A stretch of DNA of 64,000 nt from Solirubrobacteraceae bacterium (GCA_049287685.1 JBAQGH010000072.1:2821-66820); one strand, 5' to 3'. Positions 3,860-57,243 are shown, numbered from the stretch's first letter. Translations and numbers: made by a program. Notes: a model not told the origin generated them from the letters alone.

Positions 3860-4735
3860 ATGCAGCCACTGATCTGGGATCGTCGCCCCGACGGCCTGCG
3901 GGCCCCTGCCATGGTGTGCTCATTTCAGGGTTGGAACGACGCCGGCGACGCCGCCTCGACCGCGACGGGCTTCCTCGCGCAGGCGCTTGGCGCGCAGCGC
4001 TTTGCGCGGATCGACAGCGAGGAGTTCTACGACTTCCAAGCCAACCGTCCGCACGTCAAGATCGACGAGACCCAGGCGCGAGTCATCTCATGGCCGTCTG
4101 TCGAGATCTTCGAAGCGCGCGCGCCGCGCGCCCACCGCGACCTCGTGATCGTGCAGGGCACCGAGCCCTCGATGCGCTGGCGCTCGTTCAGCTCGCTGAT
4201 CGTCGACCTTGCCGAAGCGCTCGACGTGCAGCTGGTGGTAACGCTCGGAGGGTTGCTCGCCGACGTCCCCCACTCACAGCCGGTGACGATGACCGGCTTT
4301 GCCTCCGATCCAGCATTGATGGCGAGACTCGCATTGAATGCCAGCAGCTACGAGGGCCCAACGGGAATCGTGGGCGTTTTGCATGCCGGCTTCGGCCAGG
4401 CGGGGCTGCCGTCGGCGAGCATTTGGGCAAGCGTGCCCCACTATGTCGCGGCCGCCGCCAGCCCCAAGGCCGCGCTCGCCTTGCTGCGCAGGCTGGAGCT
4501 GATGGTGGGGGTCTCGGTCGATGTTACGGAGCTCGAGGAAGCCGCCGCCGAGTACGAACGCCAAGTGGGTCTAGCCGTGCGATCGGATCCCGACATCCAA
4601 GCGTTCGTCGACCGTTTGGAGCAGCGCGCCGTCGAGGACGGCCAGGCCGAGATCAGCCCGCAGGATTTGCCTTCCGGCGACCTGCTCGCGCGCGAATTCC
4701 AGCGGTTTTTGCGCCAGCGGGGGATCGAGAGCTAG
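3860..4735 (+). CDS. PAC2 (proteasome assembly chaperone 2) family protein
   Basis: The N-terminal signature MVCSFQGWNDAGDAAS is typical of actinobacterial PAC2-family proteins. The first ATG is at 3860; the track ORF starts at GTG 3851. Confidence 0.75.
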   Translation: MQPLIWDRRPDGLRAPAMVCSFQGWNDAGDAASTATGFLAQALGAQRFARIDSEEFYDFQANRPHVKIDETQARVISWPSVEIFEARAPRAHRDLVIVQGTEPSMRWRSFSSLIVDLAEALDVQLVVTLGGLLADVPHSQPVTMTGFASDPALMARLALNASSYEGPTGIVGVLHAGFGQAGLPSASIWASVPHYVAAAASPKAALALLRRLELMVGVSVDVTELEEAAAEYERQVGLAVRSDPDIQAFVDRLEQRAVEDGQAEISPQDLPSGDLLAREFQRFLRQRGIES

Positions 4736-53665: not shown

Positions 53666-53711
53666 ATGCGCCCGGCGGGAATCGAACCCGCGGCCTGCGG
53701 TTTTAAAGACC
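53666..53711 (-). repeat. distal att repeat: a displaced 3' fragment of the tRNA (anticodon stem/loop to discriminator)
   Basis: It is identical to 57062-57107 except at 53704 (T versus G at 57100). In tRNA sense it is followed by TTCTTTTTTTGTTG, the likely original tRNA 3' flank/terminator. Confidence 0.85.
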
Positions 53712-53872
53712 TGCCGAACTGTCCTTGATTGGCTTGGTTGAGCCAGATTCGGTCCGATTATGTGTCCCGAAACAGCCTTATATTTGCCTACTTGGGGACA
53801 TATTTCGGGACACGGTTTCCGAGTCGAGCCGCGATCTTTGATCCCTGCTGGCAGAAGCGCTACTTTGTGAGC

Positions 53873-54118
53873 ATGACAGCAAAGGAGAAGCTGAGGCAAA
53901 CAGTCGAAGAGCTTTCCGAGGCCGAAGCGCAGGATGCGCTTGGCTTCATCGTTCGTCGGCAAAGCAAGCGCGATGCTCTTGACGAACTACTAGAGCGCGC
54001 CCCACTCGACGATGAGCCGACGGCACCCGACGAGGACGAGGGCGTGCGGGAAGCCAAAGAGCAGATCGCCCGCGGCGAAGTGCTCTCAGCAGACGAGATC
54101 AGGCAAGAGATCGCTTGA
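53873..54118 (+). CDS. type II antitoxin (partner of the RelE/ParE toxin)
   Basis: 81-aa acidic protein (MTAKEKLRQTVEELSEAEAQDALGFI...). Its stop overlaps the toxin start (TTGA). Confidence 0.65.
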   Translation: MTAKEKLRQTVEELSEAEAQDALGFIVRRQSKRDALDELLERAPLDDEPTAPDEDEGVREAKEQIARGEVLSADEIRQEIA

Positions 54119-54375
54119 GCGACGGCGGTTGGGTCTTCTCGGCGCGCGCCGGACGTGACTTCAAGCGCCTCGACCCTCCCGTCCAGCGTCGCATCATTAG
54201 TGCTCTTGACCGACTGACGAGCGATCCACCGGCTGGAGATGTCGTCAAGCTGACGAACACCGACGAATGGCGTCTTCGCGTTGGTGACTGGCGCGTACGC
54301 TTCGAGCGCGATGCCGAGACGGGGATCGTCCACGTCGTGCGTGTGTTGCCTCGCGGCCGTGCCTATCGGGATTGA
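54115..54375 (+). CDS. RelE/ParE-family type II toxin
   Basis: FSARAGRDFKRLDPPVQRRIISALDRLTSDP...WRLRVGDWRVRFERDAETGIVHVVRVLPRGRAYR; 86 aa with a TTG start. Confidence 0.8.
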   Translation: MSDGGWVFSARAGRDFKRLDPPVQRRIISALDRLTSDPPAGDVVKLTNTDEWRLRVGDWRVRFERDAETGIVHVVRVLPRGRAYRD

Positions 54376-54650
54376 CACGACAATCGGACCCAAAACAGGG
54401 TCTCGAGTCGCTTTCGACTGCTCATCTCGTCGTGAGATGGTCGGCTGAAAGCCGACCTAATCGCCGAACAGCGGAGTGTGGTGGGGATGTCAAGAGAGCC
54501 CCGTCAGGGGTGGCCCCGCAGGGGCCAGGCCGAAGGCCCGACCTTGACATCCCCACCACACGGAGCTACAGCCACGCCTCGGGGCGCCACGAACGTTTGC
54601 GCGTAGCTCCAGGGCGCTCCGCACAGCGGAGCTCTTTGGACAGACGCGCT
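54376..54650. other. hairpin-dense non-coding segment (candidate structured ncRNA or cis-acting element of the island)
   Basis: At least eight stem-loops, including a perfect 19-bp stem (54476-54494 / 54543-54561) that encloses three small GC hairpins. See findings. Confidence 0.5.
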
Positions 54651-54911
54651 TTACTGGTCGGCGAGCCAGTTCTCGAGCATGGTCTGTGTAAAGCGGATGT
54701 GGCGTCCCACACGCAGGCACGGCAAGCGTCCCGTGCGCACCGCGTCATAGATCCAACTCGGCTTGACGGCAAGCAGCTCCGCCGCTTGCTCGGGACGCAG
54801 CAGTGGTCCGTCCAGCCGCCTGGGCCCCACGGACCGACCCTCGACGAGCGATCTCGCCGGTGGCCCCTGGCCGGGTGACGCGACAACCTCAGTGTCCCTA
54901 TATGTCCGCAT
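54651..54911 (-). CDS. xis: excisionase-family (MerR/AlpA-like) helix-turn-helix DNA-binding protein
   Basis: LLRPEQAAELLAVKPSWIYDAVRTGRLPCLRVGRHIRFTQTMLENWL. Confidence 0.8.
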   Translation of the reverse strand: MRTYRDTEVVASPGQGPPARSLVEGRSVGPRRLDGPLLRPEQAAELLAVKPSWIYDAVRTGRLPCLRVGRHIRFTQTMLENWLADQ

Positions 54912-55340
54912 AACGCGACCTCCGTACCGCTAGGAAACCGTATACATGCTTAATCCGTCGAACCACGATCAACGGGACACAAGAACAACGCAGGAGACGA
55001 AACACATCGTCGCTCGCGCTTAGCGCCACACATTTCCGCAGCGCGCTCGCAACGCTTCCACGTAACGCGAAAACAAACCACGCCTACAGCGGGACGGAAA
55101 GCCCCCGCGCGTCGGGTCGTCAGGCCACGGGTCCGCGAGGACTCCGTGGCCCGATCGACCCGATCCGTCCCACAACAGCAGACACACCACCAAACACCAA
55201 CAACAACGCACCAGCCATCAACAATCAACAATCACACTTCACACCATCTCTCAACTATCAATATCTCCCACCGATCCAACAACACAACACACCAAACCAT
55301 CCACATGCCATGCCAGCCACCCCACCACCACCTTTCTTCA

Positions 55341-55388
55341 GGTGCTTGACCACCCGCACTCGAAGTTGGGGGCGGGTGGTCAAGCACC
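55341..55388. other. perfect 17-bp stem-loop
   Basis: GGTGCTTGACCACCCGC (55341-57), a 14-nt loop, then GCGGGTGGTCAAGCACC (55372-88). There is no U-tract on either strand. Confidence 0.6.
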
Positions 55389-55584
55389 GACCCCACCCAA
55401 CCCACTTCTGGGTGGCTGGCCTAAAACCGCACAGCCGAGCCACATCCACAGCGCGGTACCGGACCACAACCTGTACCCACCTGTCGCGCTCCGCGACAAC
55501 ATTGCGACACCTGCACGACACCTCAGGATGCAGTTACCCCCACTCCACGGGTGCAGTCACCCATAGGACAGACGAGAAATCCAT

Positions 55585-56841
55585 CTATGCGATATCGACA
55601 GCAGCTGCATCGACGCCATCCACCCGGAATGCTTCTGCCACGAGCCGCGCATCCTCCTCGCGGGGCGCATAGTGCAGGTAGCGCATCGTGGTCTGGATAT
55701 CGGCGTGACCCATCCACTCCTGCACGCGGCGGATGTCGGCCGTGGCGATCATGCGCGTACCGAACGTGTGGCGCAGATCATGGAAGCGAAGCCGGCGCAG
55801 GCCGGCGCGCTTCAGAGCCCGCTTGTAGCGACGACGCAGCGCGGAGTCATCCAGGTAGTCACCGACGGTCCCAGCGAAGACGAGATCATCCTCGCCCGCG
55901 AAAAGCTCGCGCTGGGCCAGCTTCGCCAAGGCCTGCGCAACTTCGGGAGCAAGCGGGACCGAGCGGACCTTGCCGGATTTGGGGGTCGTGAGCGCCCCGA
56001 CGGACCAGCTTGAGCGCACGCGCACGAGCGAGCCGGCGAAATCGATGTCGCGCCAGCGCAAGGCAATCAGCTCTCCGAGGCGCAAGCCGGTGAAGGCGGC
56101 GGTCAGAAACAGTGCGGCGTCCTGCTCTGACTCAGCAGCCCTGACCAAGGCCCAGACCTCCTCGGGCGAGAAGACTTCGATGTCACCGGACAGGCGTGTG
56201 GGATAGCGCTCGACCGCCGCGACCGGGTTGGAGGGCAGCTTCCAGACCCTGCAGGCCCGCGCGAAGACGCCGTGCAGCAAGACCATGATGTGGTTCTTGG
56301 AGTTGTTGCTGAGCGGACGCGGCAGCCGCGAGACGGCCTCTGGACATGCCTCTGAGTCGCCGTGGGTGACCTGTCCCGTCTGTGGGCCATCAACCGCGGA
56401 CAGCCTGGCGCGCCACTGCTCGATGTCTTCGCTTGTTATCTGCTCCAAGGGTCGCTCACCAAAGGCGGGCAGCAGGTGGGCTTGCACGATCGAGCGGTAG
56501 CCACGCAACGTCGAGGGCTTCAGCTGGCGGTCCTGCTCGGCGTAGCGCAAGAACTCGGCGACTGCGTCGGCGAAGGTCGCACCGGTGGCGACCATCCCAA
56601 CCAAGGTCCCGCGCCGCGCCTGATGGAGCACATCATGCAACCAGTCTTCGGCAAGCCGCTTGGTGAAGTATCCGGCCGGTGGGCGCCCGCGCTCGCTCCA
56701 CGCGGGGCCGAGCTTGCGCTGTACCTGGCGACCATCGGGGAGCCGGTACTTGGCATACCAGACCGCCCCACGCTTGCGCTCGACCCGATGGACATGGCCG
56801 CTCGGCGGCTGCGTCCGAAGACGGGGCGCCTCTCGATCCAT
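55585..56841 (-). CDS. int: tyrosine-type site-specific integrase
   Basis: C-terminal catalytic region ...LRFHDLRHTFGTRMIATADIRRVQEWMGHADIQTTMRYLHY, and an N-terminal SAM-like domain. The ATG at 56841 (MDREAP) was chosen; the ORF is open to 56991. Confidence 0.9.
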   Translation of the reverse strand: MDREAPRLRTQPPSGHVHRVERKRGAVWYAKYRLPDGRQVQRKLGPAWSERGRPPAGYFTKRLAEDWLHDVLHQARRGTLVGMVATGATFADAVAEFLRYAEQDRQLKPSTLRGYRSIVQAHLLPAFGERPLEQITSEDIEQWRARLSAVDGPQTGQVTHGDSEACPEAVSRLPRPLSNNSKNHIMVLLHGVFARACRVWKLPSNPVAAVERYPTRLSGDIEVFSPEEVWALVRAAESEQDAALFLTAAFTGLRLGELIALRWRDIDFAGSLVRVRSSWSVGALTTPKSGKVRSVPLAPEVAQALAKLAQRELFAGEDDLVFAGTVGDYLDDSALRRRYKRALKRAGLRRLRFHDLRHTFGTRMIATADIRRVQEWMGHADIQTTMRYLHYAPREEDARLVAEAFRVDGVDAAAVDIA

Positions 56842-57061
56842 CGAAGCACCCGTCGAGGCGCCACCGTGCGACAGCACCCCGGCCCCGGAATGCGAACCGC
56901 CCACACGCGATCGGGAACCCACTGAGTAGGCGCTTCGAGTGGTTTGGAGCATCCTTGCCACGCCCAGAGCGTAGCAACTTCTTCGGGACATATTCGGGAC
57001 ACGGTTACTTTTCTATAGTGCCGCGTGCCGATCCAAAATAGCTTGGATAGAGGTTTTGTGA

Positions 57062-57107
57062 GATGCGCCCGGCGGGAATCGAACCCGCGGCCTGCGGTTT
57101 GAAAGAC
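57062..57107 (-). repeat. proximal att repeat (within the intact tRNA gene)
   Basis: Direct repeat of 53666-53711. Confidence 0.85.
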
Positions 57108-57158
57108 CGCTGCTCTTTGGCTCCCCGAAGAGAACCGTTGACCACTGAGCTACGGGCG
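57063..57158 (-). tRNA. 96-nt tRNA whose anticodon folds as UUC (Glu by anticodon); it has a canonical 73-nt core plus a 23-nt hairpin insertion in the D-loop, and no encoded CCA
   Basis: The manual fold of the reverse complement is as follows. Acceptor GCGCCCG/CGGGCGC with A73, U8 and A9. D-stem GCUC/GAGC. Anticodon stem GCGGU/ACCGC with loop CUUUCAA. Variable loop AGGCC. T-arm GCGGG-UUCGAUU-CCCGC. The D-loop reads AGUGGUC + AACGGUUCUCUUCGGGGAGCCAA + A. Confidence 0.7.
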
Positions 57159-57243
57159 CGCGAAGCTGACGATGGTACTACTTGCGGGGCTCTCGATACG
57201 GCCCCGGCGATGGCCCTCCATGGAGGTCGCGGACGGCCGTCCT

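Follow-up and report, generated by a model that had tools for sequence, protein, structure and literature searches.

The locus and its island

The sequence considered here lies in a 64,000-nucleotide stretch of Solirubrobacteraceae DNA (the window, from whose first letter all positions are counted), within a 3,397-bp integrative island that ends on either side in a copy of a 46-nt direct repeat (53666-53711 and 57063-57108) and is flanked by alaS, a GNAT gene and a DUF4389 gene. The island carries a toxin-antitoxin (TA) pair as cargo, an HTH_17 excisionase-like gene (xis) whose product gave no record in an exact-protein lookup, and a tyrosine integrase gene (int), with 670 nt of non-coding DNA between xis and int; its right-hand repeat belongs to a tRNA gene (Table 1). 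Between the toxin gene and xis is a gap that had been described, in a first-pass annotation of this DNA, as a run of back-to-back hairpins, and for which two kinds of role had been put forward: a structured non-coding RNA, possibly an extra antitoxin-like RNA for the adjacent TA pair, or a DNA site acting in cis, for example a transfer or replication origin.

Table 1. Features of the island and of the gap between the toxin gene and xis (window coordinates).
Feature	Position	Strand	Remarks
Left 46-nt direct repeat (att site; duplicates tRNA 3′ part)	53666-53711	n/a	98% identity to 57063-57108
Antitoxin, cargo TA pair	53873-54118	+	Partner of ParE/RelE toxin
ParE/RelE toxin, cargo TA pair	54115-54375	+	Pfam ParE_toxin 1.9e-10
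275-nt gap under study	54376-54650		Between toxin gene and xis
Two small hairpins just 3′ of the relE stop	54387-54419	+	TA cargo side, outside the conserved element
Hairpin 1, CATCTC-gtcgt-GAGATG	54421-54439	+	Variable position in the family
Hairpin 2, GGTCGGC-TGAAA-GCCGACC	54439-54457	+	Conserved and covarying across the family
Linker, 3′ end = conserved CAGCGGA	54458-54475	+	Model pairs 45-147, 46-146, 47-145
Long-stem 5′ arm	54476-54494	+	Outer part covaries; inner TGTCAAG invariant
Mini-hairpins GCCCC-GTCA-GGGGT, GGCCCC-GCA-GGGGCC, GGCC-GAA-GGCC	54498-54538	+	Stacked, four-way junction
Long-stem 3′ arm and GGAGCTAC	54543-54569	+	TTGACA 54544-54549, 17-nt spacer, TA 54567-54568
3′ hairpin GGAGCTAC...GTAGCTCC	54562-54610	+	Stem kept only in window-type copies
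Hairpin GCTCCGC-aca-GCGGAGC	54616-54632	+	Conserved in neither L001 nor L090
HTH_17 excisionase-like gene (xis)	54651-54911	-	Pfam HTH_17 6.2e-13; convergent with the element
Tyrosine integrase (int) of the island	55585-56991	-	Pfam Phage_integrase 6.7e-35
tRNA gene with right 46-nt repeat copy (57063-57108)	57064-57159	-	Right copy = tRNA 3′ part

Hairpins of the gap and the part that is conserved

All the stems that had been listed are present in 54376-54650 at the positions given; the 19-bp stem is a perfect inverted repeat (54476-54494 / 54543-54561) enclosing three hairpins (54498-54511, 54512-54526 and 54528-54538), and the direct repeat ACAGCGGAG occurs, as described, at 54468-76 and 54623-31. 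The + strand of the gap folds at -151.7 kcal/mol, against -108.5 +/- 5.1 in 200 dinucleotide shuffles (z = -8.5), none of which (0/200) equals its fold energy; the - strand has a fold z of -7.3, and the core defined below, with DNA parameters, one of -7.0. The earlier annotation had seen no credible ORF in the gap, and we likewise reject a coding reading, because the ORFs found there have no Pfam match and the stems covary, as would not be expected of coding sequence. It had also remarked that so much structure exceeds the needs of a terminator: 54376-54650 holds neither a T-run terminator nor a canonical promoter, an intrinsic (bidirectional) terminator, looked for as a GC-rich hairpin with a T-run, is found there on neither strand, and both identities were accordingly dropped. 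Membership in a REP-like repeat family, which had been named as a possible objection, is countered by the single copy in the 64-kb window, where the 19-mer arm also occurs once, and related loci carry one copy per element, with L114 and L127 as exceptions. The proposed comparison with Rfam (Rfam 15) returned only the tRNA at gathering score, and at E <= 10 the segment drew only sub-threshold miRNA-like hairpin matches, which removed a known RNA family from the candidate identities.

The description of the gap as back-to-back hairpins holds for the hairpins themselves but not for a single unit, as only 54421-54569 is conserved. Comparison with relatives shows a composite, in which an element at 54421-54569 is accompanied by a lineage-specific hairpin (54562-54610) and by unrelated small stems on either side. 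Among 80 loci collected by an integrase-anchored genome scan, nearly all of them titled Solirubrobacterales or related MAGs, blastn of the core matched L001 only, so that a covariance model was needed. L001 occupies the same chromosomal site as the window island and has a 91% identical integrase, and in it the window's TA module is swapped for an unrelated toxin-antitoxin pair, one member of which is a putative VapC-like toxin, judged by eye alone. The block conserved in L001 begins at 54421 and ends at about 54612 in window coordinates, and identity over 54421-54563 is 97.9%, compared with 87% for xis, 90% for int and 82-84% for other non-coding DNA. Against L090 the core is 98.6% identical and the neighbouring genes 88.5%; against L089 and L134 the figures are about 90% and 79-81%. 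The core is more conserved than the adjoining genes in all four of these comparisons.

Of the remaining hairpins of the gap, those at 54387-54419 travel with the TA module, being shared only with L090 (same TA, 97.8%) and replaced by unrelated sequence in L001; the 3′ hairpin has a variable interior among the window-type copies compared (L001, L090, L089 and L134); and the hairpin at 54616-54632 probably lies outside the element. Module breakpoints fall at the core edges. The core stays with xis and int where the TA module is swapped (L001, VapBC-like) or absent, for which reason a TA-associated RNA was rejected; in L021, the window's TA module adjoins int without the hairpin motif. The earlier idea of a non-coding RNA or extra antitoxin RNA serving the RelE pair is not favoured, given these TA swaps, the lack of a conserved upstream promoter, and the features and contexts, described below, that resemble those of single-stranded DNA (ssDNA) signals.

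A family of related elements

A covariance model of the core (R1) found diverged copies beside integrases in L002, L003, L019, L022 and L034. Three common blocks gave a scan pattern, TGTCAAG-N6-CCGTCAGG-N20-50-CTTGACA, which returned 2 viral and 54 metagenomic stretches, about 45 of these being full-length one-strand matches. The first-pass annotation had tied its claim to conservation outside this genome, and such conservation is found in these roughly 45 diverged copies, which come from Solirubrobacterales MAGs and soil metagenomes. TGTCAAG, CCGTCAGG and CTTGACA are invariant by construction of the pattern in the 56 scan-derived loci (L081-L136), and GTCAA/TTGAC is retained in the pattern-independent copies L031, L033 and L034. 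Among the pattern matches, L081/L124 and L121 are AT-rich and poorly folded, and we regard them as probable chance hits; L084 is an uncertain family member. By blastn, the core had no match among 50,697 phage records or, at word 11, among 72,556 PLSDB plasmids, and a viral scan with the window's own arm sequence returned nothing.

Compensatory changes, on which the earlier claim had also been staked, uphold the stems. Over 36 copies other than the window's near relatives, the model-fitted alignment has 91.7% of its cells paired and double-sided changes in 32 of 50 pairs; no shuffle out of 500 (0/500) attains these figures, and slid controls are 32-52% paired. As this first alignment had been fitted to the covariance model, the comparison was repeated with structure-agnostic MAFFT and RNAalifold on 16 diverse copies, which recovered the same fold with double changes in 22 of 38 pairs. 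Substitutions of this kind show that the fold is real and under selection, and the 140-nt core represents a previously undescribed family with covariation support.

Anatomy of the fold and the strand that folds

Read along the + strand, the element starts with two small hairpins, and both evolve by paired substitution: helix 1 (R1/R2) has double changes in 6/6 pairs with 76% of cells paired, and helix 2 in 7/7 pairs with 96% paired. At the base of the long stem, AGC of the linker pairs with GCT at 54565-54567, and GGA then stands opposite GGA in a symmetric 3x3 internal loop, which is replaced by Watson-Crick GGG/TCC in the L019 subfamily. Above the GGA loop, the composite stem includes a covarying 7-bp helix. 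A five-position segment of the stem reads GGGGA/TCCCC in the window, GGTTC/GAACC in L136, CCGGG/CCCGG in L127 and, in most copies, GGTTC/GGTTC (G.T, T.T, T.G). Toward the tip come the invariant TGTCAAG/CTTGACA and usually four extra pairs, and the stem ends in the junction with its mini-hairpins, where hairpins B and C carry C-GNA-G triloops (GCA, GAA or GTA, the middle base being free) in nearly all members. TTGACA occurs in 41/41 copies, a count that is partly due to ascertainment; T at -12 is found in 36/41 and A at -11 in 37/41, and at the -10 position the window and the main family read TA(C/T)nnG, with G at -7 in 28/41.

On the strand equivalent to the window's +, G.T/G.U pairs number 133 and A.C pairs 20, and this strand is the stabler one in 36/43 copies with RNA parameters (p = 2.5e-7) and in 37/43 with DNA parameters (p = 1e-7). 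By this wobble excess and this stability bias, the fold is strand-specific, belonging to one defined strand, the window + equivalent.

The same data bear on the possibility that the conserved signal is a site in duplex DNA, whether an operator or bidirectional promoter for HTH_17/Xis acting through TGTCAAG/CTTGACA, or a cruciform or cargo-exchange recombination hot spot. Retention of GTCAA/TTGAC in the pattern-independent L031, L033 and L034, the nearly constant presence of an adjacent HTH_17 gene and the match between module breakpoints and core edges would all suit such a site. It would, however, leave unexplained the compensatory changes in six other helices, the strand asymmetry and the conserved triloops, and its half-sites would be 48 nt apart, so that we regard it as highly unlikely.

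Genomic contexts of the relatives

Many loci share a gene order in which a divergent gene for a coupling protein (a T4SS-DNA_transf/TraG-D_C protein) is followed by a small HTH gene, an M48-like peptidase gene, the element, an HTH_17 gene and the integrase gene. In 17 loci, the start codon of the opposite-strand HTH_17 gene adjoins the 5′ end of the element, at about 25 nt where measured. This arrangement invites a reading in which the opposite strand acts within an mRNA, as an intercistronic or 5′-leader element that joins M48 or xis to a following HTH_17 or VapB gene and serves processing, stability or translational control: on the reverse strand the element always follows M48 or xis and usually precedes a start codon some 25-80 nt away, and in L019 a canonical promoter is seen upstream of the HTH-M48 operon and no separate one for HTH_17. 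Such a role is nevertheless highly improbable, considering that the reverse strand folds worse in 36-37/43 copies, that the conserved GGTTC/GGTTC turns on it into unpairable GAACC/GAACC, and that in the window it has only relE antisense downstream, yet the core is about 98% conserved.

Links to conjugation are found in several relatives. A TrwC relaxase-helicase is encoded a few kb away in L107 and L101, and TrwC homologues are also present in L019, L088, L113 and L122. In L107 and L101, the sequence GCACC-N3-GGTGCGTATAGTCT/GC, with a hairpin, lies 130-150 nt upstream of the relaxase gene; it agrees with the essential R388 nic sequence GGTGCGTATTGTCT (PMC4176350) at 13/14 positions and has a purine after the cut, and by this likeness it is the oriT of these two elements. 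As this R388-like oriT sits elsewhere, the element studied here is not the oriT of the associated TrwC relaxases. The strand transferred from that oriT would be + in L107 and - in L101, in both cases the element's folding strand, although the two loci share one conserved synteny and amount effectively to one observation. The element lies 5′ of nic by 7.7 kb (L107) and 9.4 kb (L101) and would therefore be exposed late.

Neither the window island nor its closest relatives carry a relaxase, a coupling protein, phage genes or an oriT of the TrwC type. A search of the whole window for a MOB_F oriT (IR2 hairpin plus GGTGCGTATTGTCT / purine) gave no match within 2 mismatches, and the two 3-mismatch matches to the oriT reverse-complement 14-mer are far outside the island and at chance level. 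Could the element instead be an oriT, nicked by a relaxase that acts in trans, and so allow the mini-island to be mobilized? The island consists only of int, xis, cargo and the element, a mobilizable-island layout, and the succession of a hairpin and a conserved single-stranded stretch recalls the build of an oriT, whether in hairpin 2 with TAAGTGCC... (L003 and L118) or in the long stem with GCTAC. We hold this extremely improbable: full elements that bear TrwC have a textbook R388-like oriT elsewhere, the window has no R388-like sequence, and no second relaxase is seen. An oriT identity for the element was rejected because L101 and L107 have their R388-like oriT upstream of the relaxase gene and the window has none.

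A different setting is provided by L098 (which contains L082, an IMG/VR contig), an inovirus-like contig with co-directional ORFs. It encodes a Zot/pI morphogenesis protein (Pfam 4e-16, PHROG 2.4e-24) and a gpII-like Rep whose assignment is weak (Pfam E = 6e-4). The element occupies a 130-nt intergenic region between the Zot/pI and Rep-like genes, on the coding (virion) strand, and has the same junction strands as the window (AGA / A / CGAC); its folding strand is also the mRNA strand. Outside the 69-nt core, the contig shows no further similarity.

The third setting is that of a two-hairpin subfamily, found in seven loci at 70 nt upstream of RadC-like JAB genes. In L114, RadC and DUF932 are each preceded by a copy of their own, and in L103 a diverged second copy precedes DUF932. 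Throughout this RadC/DUF932 subfamily, the folding strand is the template strand of the gene. Its 3′ arm carries TTGACA, 15 nt, and then TAGACT, TAGGAT, TAGAGT, TACCCT or CACAAT, with the -10 inside a mismatched bubble of a longer hairpin whose template arm exceeds the other by 2 nt over the spacer. Read from sequence, this promoter would point away from the gene in its duplex form, and toward the gene only in its fold-back form, which is how Frpo is described as working (PMC11541004).

DNA or RNA as the folded form

Several features favour DNA as the folded material, namely the C-GNA-G triloops, the lack of GNRA or UNCG tetraloops among the family copies, the flanks of the folding strand, which have no conserved promoter upstream and no terminator downstream, and the negative Rfam comparison. 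Two reports describe C-GNA-G mini-hairpins that melt above 80 C as DNA and are far weaker as RNA, bind SSB poorly, and are found at the G4 complementary-strand origin, in RSF1010 ssiA (CCGAAGG) and in the N4 single-stranded promoters (PMC13037366; PMC3201870). Pointing the other way, the GGTTC/GGTTC segment (G.U, U.U, U.G) would be more helix-like as RNA than as DNA. Natural single-stranded DNA folds beyond a hairpin are rare, and covariation or sequence analysis alone cannot separate ssDNA folds from RNA folds (Weinberg et al., PMC5737381); we infer that the active form is DNA, and this limit is the main one on our conclusion.

The corresponding alternative is a gene for a structured small RNA that would be transcribed from the window + strand, divergently from the HTH_17 genes of relatives and as antisense of xis or M48; it could regulate excision or transfer, or act on neighbouring genes. 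The covariation, the tolerance of G.U pairs and the G.U/U.U/U.G segment on the + strand would be natural in an RNA, the conserved symmetric GGA/GGA internal loop is typical of RNA-protein sites, the folding strand of the inovirus copy is the mRNA strand, and mini-islands without transfer genes retain the element under selection. Even so, the 5′ flank offers no conserved promoter, being taken up in most loci by a divergent start codon about 25 nt off and otherwise by unrelated cargo, and a separate promoter would have to serve an RNA gene in every one of the three unrelated contexts. No terminator was found, nothing in Rfam matches even at E <= 10, and the loops, being GNA triloops, differ from the GNRA/UNCG tetraloops that RNAs usually have (PMC13037366). 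On these grounds, we consider a small RNA unlikely.

A candidate single-strand origin or promoter

With a confidence only a little above even, we propose that 54421-54569 is a copy of a conserved cis-acting element that works as single-stranded + strand DNA. Its sequence features tip the balance slightly toward a single-strand origin or ssDNA promoter of the Frpo/ssi, sso or M13-minus-origin kind as the best reading. The earlier suggestion of a cis-acting DNA site, a transfer or replication origin, comes close to this conclusion, and fails only if it is taken to mean the TrwC oriT, which lies elsewhere. The proposal builds on the observed fold, conservation, strand bias and genomic contexts, and adds polymerase recruitment and a direction of synthesis, both of which we infer from the model that follows.

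When single-stranded, the + strand would form two small hairpins and, after them, a long stem (about 29 bp) that is predicted to end in a four-way junction with three very stable C-GNA-G or GTCA mini-hairpins. This mini-hairpin cap would nucleate the stem and shield it from SSB. The folded stem would restore a duplex promoter-like site, with TTGACA beside the junction on the 3′ arm and, 17 nt past it, GCTA (54565-54568) where the stem opens. Host RNA polymerase (or a primase) could initiate there, with the 5′ arm (54476-54494) as template, and run toward 54420 and the 5′ flank. The product would be a primer for complementary-strand synthesis and, in relatives, might also be the first transcript of the flank gene (HTH_17, VapB-like, RadC or DUF932).

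Some features of the window fit this scheme less well. The main-family -10 in the window is without the near-universal T at -7, and a sigma-70-type promoter thus appears only half present in the main family. In the window, the predicted direction of synthesis holds no gene, only relE antisense. A single-stranded stage of window-type mini-islands is, moreover, assumed, and either a helper supplies it or the element has another role in them. One version of the helper idea, which we think decidedly unlikely, would make the island a minimal integrative hitch-hiker, a satellite of the mobile ssDNA elements of Actinomycetota whose replication, packaging or transfer as ssDNA would depend on an inovirus or MOB_F helper from the same community. 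Beyond its integrase, excisionase and addiction module, a hitch-hiker of this kind would have kept only a single-strand-origin-like signal, one that a filamentous phage and relaxase-bearing elements also have.

Significance and relation to known systems

Promoters active in ssDNA and single-strand origins determine the establishment of incoming conjugative or phage DNA. To our knowledge, such signals are known in detail only from a few enterobacterial plasmids, Ff phages, Gram-positive rolling-circle plasmids and ICEBs1. The family described here is common to integrative mobilizable elements, mini-islands and one inovirus of soil Actinomycetota, and, if our reading is right, it would extend the biology of ssDNA promoters and single-strand origins to a new phylum, offer a marker by which the transferred strand of poorly known elements could be searched for, and count among the few natural ssDNA folds more complex than a hairpin (cf. 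PMC5737381). It also raises the question of what use relaxase-less mini-islands make of such a signal.

An R388-type oriT, with its TrwC nic, occurs in the same mobile elements as the family and likewise combines a hairpin with a single-stranded recognition region, but the relatives have it at a separate locus and the window not at all, and the element studied here is without GGTGCGTATNGTCT. In the G4 oric and RSF1010 ssiA, C-GNA-G or C-GNNA-G mini-hairpins mark the place where priming of ssDNA starts (PMC13037366). The ssiA sequence CCGAAGG is identical to a hairpin sequence in this family; however, the G4 and ssiA signals are simple hairpins of 40-140 nt recognised by dedicated primases, and no primase gene was identified in these elements.

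In the minus origin of the Ff phages (M13/f1), hairpins of the virion strand form a promoter-like template on which RNA polymerase holoenzyme makes the primer (PMC7948647). The family member of the inovirus-like contig occupies the equivalent intergenic region, but the architecture is another one, the core has no match in 50,697 phage records, and the contig's Rep assignment is weak. The sso of rolling-circle plasmids, and likewise sso1 of ICEBs1, is a folded, orientation-specific, non-coding sequence of 150-250 nt that primes second-strand synthesis and does so only in single-stranded form; it lies upstream of the nick and is usually exposed late, and with ICEBs1 it is present in an integrative conjugative element (PMC4595007). 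This family, too, is strongly folded, strand-specific and non-coding. In L107 (7.7 kb) and L101 (9.4 kb) the element lies 5′ of nic; the window has no known nick site. It differs from sso in having no detectable homology to phage or plasmid records, and the window island is without a relaxase or rolling-circle initiator.

A further comparison is with Frpo/ssi, ssDNA promoters in the leading regions of F and ColIb-P9. In Frpo, one strand folds back and rebuilds the -35 TTGACA and the -10 in its stem (PMC11541004), the -10 lying in a mismatched or open part; the transferred strand is the template, and several copies occur, each preceding a leading-region gene (PMC11541004). The present family also folds back with TTGACA in the stem, where the window's copy (54544-54549) pairs with TGTCAA of the 5′ arm beside the junction, and the RadC/DUF932 copies have a bubble -10. 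The T-strand that the oriT defines in L107 and L101 is the one that folds, and the HTH_17, RadC and DUF932 genes of relatives are templated by the folding strand; the window has neither an oriT nor a gene in that direction. Differences are nonetheless several: blastn of the core against 72,556 plasmids gave no match, the tip is a four-way junction with GNA mini-hairpins where Frpo/ssi have a simple hairpin, the main-family -10 is incomplete, the hosts are integrative elements of Actinomycetota, and in L107 and L101 the element lies far 5′ of nic, so that it enters late and outside the leading region. By analogy, then, the element would be functionally akin to Frpo/ssi, sso and the Ff minus origin, with a sequence and shape that are new and belong to no described family.

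Module boundaries and cargo

The edges of the conserved folded core between the relE toxin gene and xis are module boundaries when the window is compared with L090 and L001, the loci of two close relatives of its integrative island. Against L090, identity is 95-98% in the part running from att site to core and drops to 84-88% beginning with the 3' hairpin. With L001 the core and the right side are held in common, and the left-side cargo is unrelated. Crossovers that exchange cargo seem to fall at the element. Cargo of defence or conflict type in related islands comprises a TIR-STAND NTPase, AIPR (abortive infection), Fic/DOC and RHS-repeat proteins (Table).

Other candidate sites of the island

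The gap of ~670 nt between xis and the tyrosine integrase gene int is non-coding, with a G-poor + strand, and contains blocks that are 100% identical among four islands despite 12-20% divergence in xis. One surrounds the hairpin GGGCCACGG...CCGTGGCCC and another contains a perfect 17-bp hairpin, GGTGCTTGACCACCCGC / GCGGGTGGTCAAGCACC. The CTTGACC...GGTCAAG hairpin of this gap, which may be a second cis element of the island, is also found in L001, L003, L022, L029, L060, L078, L090 and L134, and in these relatives it mostly lies immediately downstream of int. GGGAC/GTCCC motifs recur in the same gap, and the sequence (C)T(A/T)CTT(G/C)GGGACATATTTCGGGACACGGTT forms a second direct repeat just within the two island ends; both are candidates for integrase arm-type or Xis binding sites.

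The island's target tRNA is 96 nt long and scores 68 bits as a tRNA in Rfam. ARAGORN assigns it no amino acid, reads its anticodon as the four bases 'ggag', and makes the identical call in the related loci L002 and L003. The target is probably a long-arm tRNA-Ser, because neighbouring loci carry a 94-nt tRNA-Ser(GGA).

Table. Positions of features in the window and in related loci
Feature	Locus	Position	Strand
Second direct repeat	window	53788-53817 and 56978-57006	
xis-int gap	window	54912-55584	
Identical block 1	window	about 55120-55150	
Identical block 2	window	about 55300 to 55440	
17-bp hairpin	window	55341-55388	
Target tRNA	window	57064-57159	
Defence- or conflict-type cargo	L019	10978-12501	
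Defence- or conflict-type cargo	L101	8737-10752	
Defence- or conflict-type cargo	L123	7159-8361 and 9930-13991	
Hairpin GGGGCGGGATTGCCC	L103	about 2290-2305 and 4040-4055	
Hairpin GGGGCGGGATTGCCC	L114	both copies	
Inovirus-like contig	L098	1-7096	
Truncated element, interrupted M48-like gene	L004	9560-9820	
Truncated element, interrupted M48-like gene	L004	9700-11940	
Full element copy	L127	1876-2013	-
Full element copy	L127	2211-2344	+
R388-type nic region	L107	9523-9552	+
R388-type nic region	L101	about 4530-4560	-
R388-type nic region	L067	8521-8534	
R388-type nic region	L073	11005-11018	

Variant and unusual copies of the element

Between the gene start and each element of the RadC/DUF932 type (L103, L114) lies a small conserved hairpin, GGGGCGGGATTGCCC, which pairs with GCAAGCCCGCCCC across the element, and the entire unit is therefore a hairpin of ~135 nt. 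One element copy occupies an intergenic region of L098 (within which L082 is contained), an inovirus-like contig whose source is a soil metagenome of high GC content. This contig has genes for Zot/pI and, by a weak match, for a gpII-like Rep. L127 has two full copies inverted relative to each other, their 5' ends facing across ~200 nt. L004 is a relative in decay: its element is cut off directly after GGTTCT, and the M48-like gene beside it is interrupted by an insertion of ~1.3 kb.

A TrwC nic region in related integrative elements

Integrative elements of Solirubrobacterales possess a near-perfect R388-type TrwC nic region, GGTGCGTATAGTCT/GC, following a GCACC...GGTGC hairpin. Compared with the oriT of an IncW plasmid, this nic region is identical at 13 of 14 positions, across phyla.
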